Counted from the stretch's first letter, positions 15,652 to 19,071 are shown. The stretch: 32,875 bases of DNA from Nanobdellota archaeon (GCA_018812765.1 JAHJDB010000041.1:1-32875); one strand, 5' to 3'. Notes: generated by a model not told the origin, from the sequence alone. Numbers and translations are program-made.

Positions 15652-16044
15652 ATGGTCAGCGTTGCAGCAAAATGCAGGATTTGTAACAATACTTCCCCGG
15701 CAGAACAATTTAAGCTTAGTCACGAGTATAAACAGATGGTCTGCCATAATTGTTTTACTGGTAAAACAAAAAATTTGCAGGAAAGGGAGAAGGTAAAAAG
15801 GATGGAAACTCCAATTAAACCGCCGGGCTGGGATGCTGAAGATGAATATCTTGCTAAAGTTGCTAAACAGAAAAGCATGGAAAATAAGTCTTACTTTAAG
15901 AAGATTCCGGGATCTGATCATGTTAAATGCACCTGCCAGAATTGTAAGTTTGAATTTAAGTATGATCCCCTTAAAAATATACCTCGGGCCTGTCCTTATT
16001 GTAATGGGGAAATTCCTCGCTTAAGGATGTTTACCTGGTCTTAA
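15652..16044 (+). CDS. Double zinc-ribbon protein
   Basis: CRIC, CHNC, CQNC, CPYC; central PPGWDAEDEYL. Confidence 0.75.
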   Translation: MVSVAAKCRICNNTSPAEQFKLSHEYKQMVCHNCFTGKTKNLQEREKVKRMETPIKPPGWDAEDEYLAKVAKQKSMENKSYFKKIPGSDHVKCTCQNCKFEFKYDPLKNIPRACPYCNGEIPRLRMFTWS

Positions 16045-16171
16045 TTAAGGAATGGTTTTTCACTAAGTTTCTGCTGAAAAAATGGATCTTGAGAATGATT
16101 TAGGTTATCCTTGGGAATAATCTTGTTTTTTATAGATAAAATTAAGAACTCTTTTTTCATTTCAGATAATC

Positions 16172-16729
16172 ATGGAAGATTTTATCATCAGAAAAGAAGA
16201 TCTAGAGATCCCTGAAGAAGAAGAAAAACCGTCTAAACTGAAGAAACTGTTTATTTTAATGGCTGGAGTAATTATGATTGTTCTGATGTTATCATTCATT
16301 TTTGCGAGCTATCCTCTTTCAAACATAATTGCGGGCTTGTTGGAATCAAGCCCTTTGGATAGTAACGAAATTAAGATGGACGGATTTTCGATAATCTTTG
16401 AAGATCTAACTCACGAATCCTTAAAACAGATCTATTTTTCTGAACAGAAAGTAGAATTTAGTGTTTGTTTACAAGGGCAGAAGGTTGGTCCTGATTATTA
16501 TATTGGTTCCTTATACCTGCCGGAGATGTATGAACAGGCTTTTGATCATGTTTCTTTTCAGCCTTGTTCTAAGGATACTTTGATCATGCTGCATAGCCAT
16601 CCTTACAAAAGCTGTTTAGCTTCTGATACGGATCTAGATACCTTAAAAAAGAACAAAGAAGTCAATCCGGATGTTTTGATGGTGATCATGTGTGAGCCGG
16701 AGAGGTTTAGTGTTTATGGAGCAGATTAG
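16172..16729 (+). CDS. Membrane-anchored JAMM/MPN+ (JAB) metalloprotease-like protein
   Basis: One N-terminal TM, then E(FSVCL)...HSHPYKSCLASDTD, an exact HxH-x7-S-x2-D JAMM motif. Confidence 0.75.
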   Translation: MEDFIIRKEDLEIPEEEEKPSKLKKLFILMAGVIMIVLMLSFIFASYPLSNIIAGLLESSPLDSNEIKMDGFSIIFEDLTHESLKQIYFSEQKVEFSVCLQGQKVGPDYYIGSLYLPEMYEQAFDHVSFQPCSKDTLIMLHSHPYKSCLASDTDLDTLKKNKEVNPDVLMVIMCEPERFSVYGAD

Positions 16730-16857: not shown

Positions 16858-17475
16858 ATGGACAAAGCTAAATTGAGGGGGATGATAATTTCAAACATTC
16901 ATGATTTGGTAAAAATTATTGATAAAACAGAAAGGAAAAAAGTACTAAAGCATTATTGGTATCTGAATAGGATGTTTGTTTATCCTACATATGAATTTTC
17001 TGGAGTAGAAGAAGTCGACGAATTTATCGTAAGATTATCATTTTTTTGTGAAGGAATTCGTAATAGATTAAAATTAAGTGAAAATAGGTCTGATGAAATA
17101 AAAGAAATTAAGAAAGTATATAGAAATGTATTCTTAACTTGTGTTTATAATTTTGAACCTAAAAAAGAAATTAAAGAATTAACTCAAAAATTCCATGATT
17201 TGGTTGAGAATTATTTCAAAAATGATGTTTTAGGTTGTATATTGGGAATAAGTGTAAAACGCTTTTGGTTATTCAAAATAAAACAAAAAAAATACGAACT
17301 TGTTGAAACTGGAAAAGTTATCAAAAGTGGAAAAACAAGTAAAGAAGGAATAATTGCTTTTGAAAATATTAAAAAAGGAAATTATATTTTAAAAATTTAT
17401 TTTGATGAAAAAGTAAAAGAAAAGAAGATTCAAGTCACGGAATTCTTATCTGGTATAAAATTAAATTTTATTTAA
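16858..17475 (+). CDS. Hypothetical protein: helical N-terminus, possible prealbumin/carboxypeptidase-regulatory-like C-terminal beta domain
   Basis: 205-aa AT-rich ORF; C-terminal SGKTSKEGIIAFENIKKGNYILKI pattern; TATA-like TTTTATAAA upstream. Confidence 0.55.
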   Translation: MDKAKLRGMIISNIHDLVKIIDKTERKKVLKHYWYLNRMFVYPTYEFSGVEEVDEFIVRLSFFCEGIRNRLKLSENRSDEIKEIKKVYRNVFLTCVYNFEPKKEIKELTQKFHDLVENYFKNDVLGCILGISVKRFWLFKIKQKKYELVETGKVIKSGKTSKEGIIAFENIKKGNYILKIYFDEKVKEKKIQVTEFLSGIKLNFI

Positions 17476-18279: not shown

Positions 18280-19071
18280 TTAATTTTTTTTGATCTCCCC
18301 GCCGCCAGCAGGAAGGAATTTGATGATGTCATCCAAGTCTCCGCCTTTTAATTTTGATTTTATCTTCTTGGCTAGACTGCTTTTCTTTTCTCTTCCGGAG
18401 ATGATGACAAGATAGTTGTTTGTTTTTGTTTTTACTGCTGTTACGGGGCCGCCGATAATCTTTTCTTCAACCAGACCGATGGTGTATTCCAGTTTCGGAT
18501 GAATATAGGTTGTTTTTCCCCGGATCATAAAGCTTCCTTTCTGAAGATATTCTCCTGATTGGGCTTCTTTGGTGACCTGTTCCGGCTTAACGTAAAAAAC
18601 GTCTGCACTGCCATGGCCTAGCTTCCAGGCTTTAGAATAGACGGCTACGGCCTGGGCAGTTTCGTCAAGAGTAGTTTCACCGGCTTCCTGTCCGTTTTTA
18701 ATCACAAAGAAAGGGCTTCCAGCCATATCAGTATGAAAGACTAAATCTTCTTTTTCTAGATGTTTTTTAATCACTATTTCGTTTGAGGTTGCATCTTTTC
18801 CACCGATGCACAAGAATCCTTCAGAAGAGATGAACCAATGAAACTTTTCATACCACTCTTTTTTACTTTCTTTTTTTGATTGTTTCCGGGCTTCTTCTGC
18901 CCAGAATTTATCTTCTTCTTTTCTCAGCTTTTCTAATTTACCTTCACTTTCTTTCAAGGCTTTTTTTGCTCCTTCTAATTTCTTCTTAGCTTTTTTTGAT
19001 AAGTTGAAGTAAGTGCCGGCATTTTCATCTACACTTTTAGTAAGATCAAATTCTATTTCCATTGTTATCAT
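18280..19071 (-). CDS. NFACT-R (DUF814) domain protein; N-terminally truncated Rqc2/RqcH/NEMF homolog
   Basis: FDLTKSVDENAGTYFNLSKKAKKK coiled coil, WYEKFHWFISSEGFLCIGGKDATSNE, FHTDMAGSP, SKAWK, QVTKEAQSGEYLQKGSFMIRGK. Confidence 0.88.
   Translation of the reverse strand: MITMEIEFDLTKSVDENAGTYFNLSKKAKKKLEGAKKALKESEGKLEKLRKEEDKFWAEEARKQSKKESKKEWYEKFHWFISSEGFLCIGGKDATSNEIVIKKHLEKEDLVFHTDMAGSPFFVIKNGQEAGETTLDETAQAVAVYSKAWKLGHGSADVFYVKPEQVTKEAQSGEYLQKGSFMIRGKTTYIHPKLEYTIGLVEEKIIGGPVTAVKTKTNNYLVIISGREKKSSLAKKIKSKLKGGDLDDIIKFLPAGGGEIKKN

Follow-up and report, generated by a model that had tools for sequence, protein, structure and literature searches.

We analyzed a 32,875-nucleotide stretch of DNA from a tiny, groundwater-dwelling Nanobdellota archaeon (GCA_018812765.1, JAHJDB010000041.1:1-32875), hereafter the window, in which a plus-strand gene at 16172..16729 encodes a JAMM/MPN+ protein with a predicted membrane anchor. 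The gene is complete, comprising 185 codons and a stop, as judged from the open reading frame (ORF) list, the sequence, and the homologs. Its translation contains every element listed in the original prediction, which was made from this sequence alone, namely an intact JAMM motif, a single transmembrane helix, a KPSKLKK stretch preceding it, and four cysteines.

The protein can be divided into four parts. Residues 1-21 (16172..16234) form a charged N-terminal tail that ends in KPSKLKK, is modeled with a predicted local distance difference test (pLDDT) score of 49-65, varies in both length and sequence across the family (alignment A1), and is predicted to be cytoplasmic. Residues 22-46 (16235..16309) form one hydrophobic helix (AlphaFold2 pLDDT 93-97), which is predicted to be an uncleaved signal anchor in an N-in/C-out orientation; its hydrophobic stretch of 23 residues, LFILMAGVIMIVLMLSFIFAS, follows KPSKLKK, and its best 19-residue window has a Kyte-Doolittle mean of 2.96. 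Residues 47-59 (16310..16348) comprise a conserved juxtamembrane segment with the consensus YPIxxIIxGxLES, identified from alignment A1 and the AlphaFold2 model, in which a short helix spans residues 49-58. Within this segment, Pro48, Ile52, and Ser59 are invariant or near-invariant in alignment A1, and Ser59 is kept in 232 of 253 aligned family members. The remainder, residues 60-185 (16349..16726), is a minimal MPN/JAMM catalytic domain, as assigned by Foldseek, VIA-align, and a profile search.

An MPN fold with a conserved JAMM motif

The abstract of PMC300881 gives the JAMM motif as EXnHS/THX7SXXD. The translation fits this form, with Glu95 (codon 16454..16456) followed by H141-S-H143-PYKSCLA-S151-DT-D154 (16592..16633), that is, H141-S-H143-x7-S151-x2-D154. 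Among 253 aligned members (16 of 269 proteins fell outside 150-240 aa and were excluded), Glu95 is kept in 251, His141 in 252, His143 in 250, Ser151 in 252, and Asp154 in 252, so that each motif residue on which the original prediction relied is conserved in 250-252 of the 253 homologs. The spacing from Glu95 to Gly102 is presumably that of the E-x-x-G-x-L-x-G stretch of Rpn11 and AMSH.

The AlphaFold2 model of the 185-aa protein (mean pLDDT 87.1; predicted template modeling score 0.72) places, after the helices at 22-46 and 49-58, a domain in the order β1-α1-β2-β3-(hairpin)-β4-loop-α2-β5-β6. A Foldseek search of the model against the PDB returned 85 matches at E ≤0.001, with CSN5, the Caldiarchaeum Rpn11 homolog, and AMSH on top; the leading matches had E of about 1e-5 and a probability of 1.00, which identifies the fold as MPN and bears out the assignment made from the motif. 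In VIA-align, an independent all-against-all structural search, 30 chains reached Z ≥8 and MPN proteins again led, with Rpn11 (4o8x_B) at Z 11.4 (root-mean-square deviation 2.0 Å over 109 residues), BRCC36 and Pyrococcus JAMM1 (PfJAMM1, 5ld9_A) each at Z 10.2, Cap3 at Z 9.6, AfJAMM at Z 8.9 (deviation 2.4 over 90 residues, 22% identity), and RadC (2qlc) at Z 8.3. At the sequence level, a profile of 29 members matched the AMSH-like protease Sst2 (E 3.9e-4, profile positions 96-180), the match spanning both the Glu strand and the HxH...S..D segment. By its fold, its motif, and the conservation of that motif, the protein is a member of the JAMM/MPN+ superfamily.

According to a passage of PMC300881, the catalytic set of AfJAMM consists of Glu22, His67, His69, Ser77, and Asp80. 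By analogy with this set, His141, His143, and Asp154 would bind zinc, Glu95, the predicted general base in the place of Glu22, would position the water, and Ser151 would serve as the oxyanion serine. Given the near-invariance of these residues across the 253-member alignment and the MPN fold of the model, the predicted enzyme is very probably active.

A family restricted to Woesearchaeota-like archaea

A word-indexed protein search yielded 133 homologs at E ≤0.01 among 192 candidates, and the 120 homologs listed have 163-210 aa and 44-100% identity to the query. An exhaustive HMMER search of 1.84 billion proteins returned, at E ≤0.001, 226 cluster representatives (50% identity), 186 of them at ≤1e-10 and 45 at ≤1e-30. 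These representatives are nearly all 170-205 aa long and match from about residue 10-20 on, which makes the helix a part of the family architecture. When longer relatives of the domain were searched for, none scored, a result that the search's own note treats as weak evidence. In the source databases, the members are annotated as "hypothetical protein," except for six JGI entries that are named "proteasome lid subunit RPN8/RPN11."

A pattern scan of species-representative genomes recovered 71 genomic loci, deposited as Woesearchaeota, Nanoarchaeota, "archaeon," or "uncultured Methanosarcinales archaeon," with one in a Nomurabacteria bin. The contig of that one locus (L025, MFTJ01000050.1) was binned as a Nomurabacteria bacterium of the candidate phyla radiation, and because all of the other loci are archaeal, mis-binning seems likely. 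Many loci carry the label "uncultured Methanosarcinales archaeon," yet their proteins group with Woesearchaeota.

Among 401 genomes of the window's phylum, each at least 90% complete, the family is present in 100, usually as a single copy, and in the window's own taxonomic family, 17 of 41 genomes carry it. All 100 carriers share a family, order, or class with the window's genome. The gene thus belongs to a conserved family and is not a chance ORF. The family is restricted to Woesearchaeota-like DPANN archaea and is patchy among them, which makes it accessory and not core.

Orientation of the catalytic domain

To gauge the orientation, we compared the charges that flank the helix in 185 members with an H.HP[YF] pattern and at least 160 aa; the other 84 of the 269 proteins were dropped as fragments or position-145 variants. 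The Kyte-Doolittle mean of the most hydrophobic 19-residue window reaches 2.0 or more in 181 of the 185 members. Lysine and arginine together average 3.23 in the 15 residues before the helix versus 0.89 in the 15 residues after it, and the N-terminal flank holds more of them than the C-terminal flank in 166 members, an equal number in 15, and fewer in 4. In comparison, the 109 crudely called proteins of the same genome with a single N-terminal hydrophobic segment show a weaker bias (2.50 versus 1.79). By the positive-inside rule, the family-wide bias corresponds to an N-in/C-out arrangement. The external placement of the catalytic domain that had been proposed for this one protein is thereby extended, as a prediction, to most of the family (166 of 185 members).

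Two clusters, P0162 and P0270 (278 aa, 76% identical to one another, and located on contigs of 259 and 387 kb), lack a signal peptide and contain, N-terminal to the helix, a GGACT/AIG2-like domain (PF06094, E 2.3e-18, residues 4-103). Since a folded GGACT domain without a signal peptide lies ahead of the helix, the N-terminal end must be cytoplasmic in these proteins. Their nearest relatives have 194 aa and are missing the GGACT part, other members of the family have Lys- and His-rich tails of 60-70 residues, and no GGACT domain was found in the window's genome (92.8% complete) at E ≤0.01.

The stretch after the helix has only about 13 residues and is conserved as strongly as the domain itself. 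Such a stretch is too short for a second crossing of the membrane, which would leave the active site near the membrane surface. Overall, the catalytic domain is predicted to face outward, an orientation that we consider likely.

Conserved cysteines and the capacity for disulfide formation

The protein has exactly four cysteines, at positions 99 (codon 16466..16468), 132 (16565..16567), 148 (16613..16615), and 174 (16691..16693). Cys148 is kept in 252 of the 253 aligned members and the other three in 251 each; all four occur together in 248 members, and 230 members have exactly four in total. In AfJAMM, a disulfide between Cys74, in the β4-α2 loop five residues after the second histidine (His69+5), and Cys95, in β5, stabilizes the zinc-site loop, as described in a passage of PMC300881. 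Cys148 occupies the equivalent position (His143+5), and Cys174 resides on the strand that follows the motif helix (strand 169-175 after helix 152-164 in the AlphaFold2 model), so that a Cys148-Cys174 bond is likely by analogy. Cys99 and Cys132 would then be the remaining pair, and the four invariant cysteines most likely form two disulfides.

The window's genome (G000) encodes (i) a 275-aa fusion of VKOR with a thioredoxin-like CxxC domain (C55:2260-3084) and (ii) a DsbA-like protein (559 aa, C3:14714-16390) with a long charged tail, one transmembrane segment, a CPYC domain, and a C-terminal extension. An even number of cysteines in exported proteins is a signature of organisms that oxidize these proteins. 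Among 982 ORFs crudely called from this genome, the N-anchored or secreted class (n = 109) has 70 proteins with an even, 18 with an odd, and 21 with no cysteine count, versus 247, 357, and 117, respectively, in the class without a hydrophobic segment (n = 721; Fisher p = 6e-12 for the even-cysteine contrast). The contrast persists when the first 45 residues of the no-segment class are omitted (235 even, 330 odd). Together, the VKOR and DsbA-like genes and the even-cysteine bias indicate that this DPANN archaeon forms disulfides outside the cytoplasm.

Ubiquitin-like systems and genomic context

Genome-wide searches for ThiF and ThiS gave matches on contigs C106, C107, and C34, and none on C110, the contig of the window; likewise, none of the 136 immediate neighbors in the 71 loci is a ubiquitin-like protein (Ubl), an E1, or an E2 by Pfam. 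The original prediction had noted that no Ubl or E1 gene is nearby, which holds for the window and for the linked genes of the family, but not for the genome as a whole. At C106:5110-7190 (L072:368-2445), a ThiS/SAMP2-like protein (67 aa, ending in GG), a PP-loop ATPase (315 aa, with Cys-rich ends), and a ThiF E1 (317 aa) are encoded in a row; no other clear Ubl-E1 set was found in this genome. We take this three-gene row to resemble tRNA-thiolation and sampylation systems. With a SAMP/TtuB-like Ubl and its E1 present elsewhere, a cytoplasmic role for the JAMM protein is weakened yet conceivable.

The genome also encodes a second protein with a JAMM motif (HSH-x7-S-x2-D), of 376 aa and without a hydrophobic segment, on the minus strand at C69:1801-2928 (L076:919-2049). 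It has a low-complexity tail, NFNLSNFNLNNFN, and its Prok-JAB match, at 21.6 bits, lies below the threshold; this second, soluble JAMM could serve the Ubl system. A 306-aa protein without a Pfam match adjoins it on C69. Separately, a 526-aa protein on the minus strand of C107 (L074:433-3247) matches ThiF three times, suggestive of a duplication of the E1-like domain. A few of its codons overlap with those of a 417-aa protein that belongs to no known family, and the pair may be a separate Ubl-like or defense module.

Across the 401 genomes, ThiF (counted at E ≤1e-5) is present in 268. The JAMM family and ThiF occur together in 77 genomes, the family alone in 23, ThiF alone in 191 (one of which, G359, is flagged as unpublished), and neither in 110. 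The 23 carriers without ThiF include G004, a single contig at 99% completeness, and in one taxonomic family (f5) the JAMM protein is present in three of three genomes and ThiF in none of the three. The family therefore has no general dependence on an E1-made conjugate.

Beyond Ubl systems, no neighbor of the gene is conserved. Of nine neighbors in the window, tblastn against the 71 loci showed at most 3 to be shared, and the 136 immediate neighbors are unrelated housekeeping or membrane proteins by Pfam. When 795 ORFs were clustered all-against-all, the most frequent non-JAMM cluster, which we take from its sequence, by eye, to be arginyl-tRNA-synthetase-like, was found in 13 of 72 loci, and all recurrent neighbors trace to a single group of about ten syntenic loci.

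In the window itself, a TTTATA sequence at 16129..16134 on the plus strand, 38-43 nucleotides before the ATG, is a possible archaeal TATA box, noted by eye and possibly due to chance in a genome of 35.6% GC. Upstream, the product of the plus-strand gene at 15652-16044 has 130 aa, four CxxC pairs in two zinc-ribbon-like halves, and only weak Pfam matches (HypA and Rpr2); the gene is common to 2 of the 71 related loci. The downstream gene (16858-17475, plus strand) encodes a 205-aa protein whose last 60 residues weakly resemble prealbumin-like/SpaA and type IX secretion system (T9SS) sorting-domain folds (E about 1e-3, under the cut-offs), and it has no homolog in the 71 related loci. Further along, the minus-strand gene at 18280-19071 encodes a 263-aa NFACT-R_1 protein in which only the end of the NFACT_N region is kept; its product is a truncated ribosome-quality-control factor.

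Proposed function and alternative explanations

We propose, with a probability of roughly 0.55, that the protein is a signal-anchored, outward-facing zinc (iso)peptidase with two disulfides that acts on a membrane-proximal substrate in the envelope or at the surface. As predicted, a single N-terminal signal-anchor helix would hold the JAMM/MPN+ hydrolase in the cytoplasmic membrane; the short charged tail would remain in the cytoplasm, and the juxtamembrane helix and minimal MPN domain would lie on the outside, near the surface of the membrane. Catalysis would follow the AfJAMM/Rpn11 scheme, with zinc held by His141, His143, and Asp154, the water activated by Glu95, and the intermediate stabilized by Ser151, whereby the enzyme would cut a peptide or isopeptide amide bond in a substrate that is presented to it in extended form. 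The two disulfides (Cys148-Cys174 and Cys99-Cys132) would stiffen the active-site loop. The substrate would not be a cytoplasmic, E1-made Ubl conjugate and would most likely be a component of the envelope or surface near the membrane, either of the archaeon's own cell or of a partner cell. The surface proteins or host envelope linkages suggested as substrates in the original prediction, and the episymbiont lifestyle, are conjectural. It is distinctly unlikely that the enzyme acts outside the cell specifically as an isopeptidase on isopeptide or γ-glutamyl cross-links of the envelope, with a non-Ubl substrate. Candidate targets would then be, on the cell itself, surface filaments or S-layer anchors and, on a partner cell, the peptide bridges of pseudomurein or peptidoglycan. 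The γ-glutamyl form of such cross-links would fit the rare GGACT fusion, since the GGACT family acts on γ-glutamyl amines.

Several observations weigh against an outward-facing enzyme of this kind. The positive-inside rule is established but statistical in nature, and N-glycosylation sequons are not enriched (0.85 observed versus 0.99 expected from shuffles), the commonest sites being at position 78 (57 of 253 members) and position 71 (49 of 253). The 185-aa protein itself scores 13.7 bits against Pfam Prok-JAB (PF14464), with a cut-off of 25; 24 of the 29 aligned relatives match this model at E ≤0.1 (best 1.4e-6), and precomputed PF14464 matches exist for 2 of the 120 listed clusters. AfJAMM, which is cytoplasmic, has the equivalent of the Cys148/Cys174 pair, so that this pair is no proof of export, and a structural metal site at the four cysteines is possible. 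The earlier suggestion that the cysteines may form disulfides is plausible in this organism, given its VKOR, its DsbA-like protein, and the even-cysteine bias. However, VKOR, which occurs in 163 of the 401 genomes, was detected in just 51 of 100 carriers as against 112 of 301 non-carriers, a weak link among related genomes that are not independent, and the four cysteines thus cannot depend on VKOR everywhere. Neither the neighbors in the 71 loci nor, apart from the rare GGACT domain, the fusions indicate a substrate, and the sequons do not either. Passages of a companion paper to a survey of prokaryotic JAB domains argue that JAB domains act as peptidases on Ubl tails only (PMC3239186), and, according to passages of the companion paper and the survey, the characterized prokaryotic JAMM peptidases are all cytoplasmic and act on such tails (PMC3239186, PMC3482391).

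The C106 operon, with its GG-ended, ThiS/SAMP2-like protein, PP-loop ATPase, and ThiF E1, would suit a cytoplasm-facing, membrane-tethered protease that removes or processes a ThiS/SAMP/TtuB-like protein conjugated by the ThiF E1. Such a protease would also account for the closest folds, all of which are Ubl-directed (Rpn11, PfJAMM1, Cap3, and a bacterial Ubl deubiquitinase), and for the cysteine pair shared with cytoplasmic AfJAMM. A ThiF gene is found in 77 of the 100 carriers versus 191 of the 301 non-carriers, although related genomes are not independent and this mild enrichment carries no statistical conclusion. However, the charge bias (3.23 versus 0.89) points the opposite way in 166 of 185 members, and an N-out form would have to export tails of 20-110 residues with about five lysines or arginines and, in two clusters, a GGACT domain. 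The 23 carriers without ThiF and the absence of a Ubl or E1 among the 136 neighbors also disagree with a tethered Ubl protease, as do the Ubl that already ends in GG and the soluble JAMM of the same genome. Such a protease is a possibility, though an unlikely one.

Two further explanations, which concern the anchor and the chemistry, appear very unlikely. In one, the hydrophobic segment would be cleaved off as a signal peptide, freeing the domain as a secreted, soluble JAMM; the N-terminal location of the segment, the small residues after it (FAS/YP in this protein), and the exported-class cysteine pattern of the domain are consistent with this. Nevertheless, the hydrophobic core is preceded by a long and acidic region (about 25 residues; family mean start 29.8) and, with about 23 residues, exceeds that of a typical signal peptide. 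Alignment A1 shows no conserved small-x-small motif for cleavage, and the post-helix segment is conserved like the domain and packed against it in the model. In the other, the protein is a JAB of non-protease type, either with another hydrolytic role (a nuclease, as proposed for RadC and Tox-JAB) or as a structural MPN subunit. Weak RadC matches in 5 of 29 members (best E 0.014) and the alignment of RadC 2qlc (Z 8.3) agree with this, as do arguments by Aravind's group, in passages of two papers, that several JAB clades are not peptidases (PMC3239186, PMC3482391). Against it, both the fold comparison and the profile search favor peptidase-type MPN+ proteins (Rpn11, Z 11.4; Sst2, E 3.9e-4), Prok-JAB is matched by 24 of 29 members, and the protein has neither a helix-hairpin-helix (HhH) or other DNA-binding domain nor a fused toxin-delivery region. 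In addition, the catalytic set, including Ser151, is nearly invariant, contrary to an inactive scaffold.

JAMM/MPN+ enzymes are regarded as partners of ubiquitin-like systems in the cytoplasm. In this sizeable, conserved family, an exported-type cysteine pattern and a signal anchor, combined with the lack of Ubl or E1 linkage, would extend the chemistry of the JAMM fold to the cell surface, and cleavage of envelope cross-links, if true, would make this the first JAMM enzyme outside the cell with a non-Ubl substrate. With a domain of about 125 residues, the protein would be a small and easily expressed candidate for studies of envelope remodeling, of their own or a partner's envelope, by genome-reduced DPANN archaea. 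The value of the finding rests on the topology, predicted so far; should the domain face the cytoplasm, the protein would be a membrane-localized desampylase, which is likewise undescribed.

Comparison with known JAMM proteins

The best structural matches are Rpn11 (4o8x_B, 11.4), PfJAMM1 (5ld9_A, 10.2), and the Caldiarchaeum Rpn11 homolog (6fjv_A, 9.6), which contain the same motif. These enzymes are cytoplasmic and act on ubiquitin or SAMP tails, and they often have Ubl, E1, or E2 genes alongside or a second MPN subunit as partner, unlike the family described here, which has a membrane anchor and lacks a ThiF E1 in 23 of 100 carriers. AMSH and Sst2, endosomal K63 deubiquitinases, provide the best sequence-profile match among solved structures, but these eukaryotic, cytosolic enzymes rely on other domains for their recruitment to membranes and also have insertions and a second zinc site. 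Cap3 and the bacterial Ubl deubiquitinases of defense systems share the MPN+ fold (9ild_A, Z 9.6; 8tyy_B, Z 9.4), whereas their genes adjoin E1/E2-like and cyclase or Ubl genes, none of which occurs in the 71 loci here. Judged by linkage, the family does not group with Ubl-system JAMMs, given that none of its 136 neighbors is a Ubl-system gene and that ThiF is missing in 23 of 100 carriers.

Two JAB types with other proposed activities were considered and rejected. A RadC-type identity is not supported, as the query has no RadC match and no HhH or extra domain, and the 5 of 29 relatives that match the RadC model do so only at E ≥0.014. Passages of PMC3482391 describe the Tox-JAB toxin clades as the only prokaryotic JAB domains to leave the producer's cytoplasm, and all others identified before that survey as intracellular. 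A literature search, which did not cover subscription journals, found no description of a membrane-anchored or extracellular JAMM/JAB/MPN protein from archaea, DPANN, or Woesearchaeota. Tox-JAB modules are C-terminal parts of large RHS or secreted bacterial toxins, have adjacent immunity genes, and are predicted nucleases; by these descriptions, the stand-alone 185-aa archaeal protein without a conserved neighbor stands apart. The family has a fixed architecture of about 170-205 aa and no longer forms that scored, the latter being weak evidence, and a Tox-JAB identity was rejected on the basis of architecture and neighborhood.

The closest parallel in domain design is AfJAMM (Archaeoglobus AF2198, PDB 1R5X), likewise a minimal archaeal MPN+ domain without insertions. 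Its Glu22, His67, His69, Ser77, and Asp80 correspond to Glu95, His141, His143, Ser151, and Asp154, and it too has a cysteine at His+5 with a second one on the next strand (Cys74-Cys95). AfJAMM is, however, soluble and cytoplasmic, without the tail, the helix, and the juxtamembrane segment that precede the domain in the present family.

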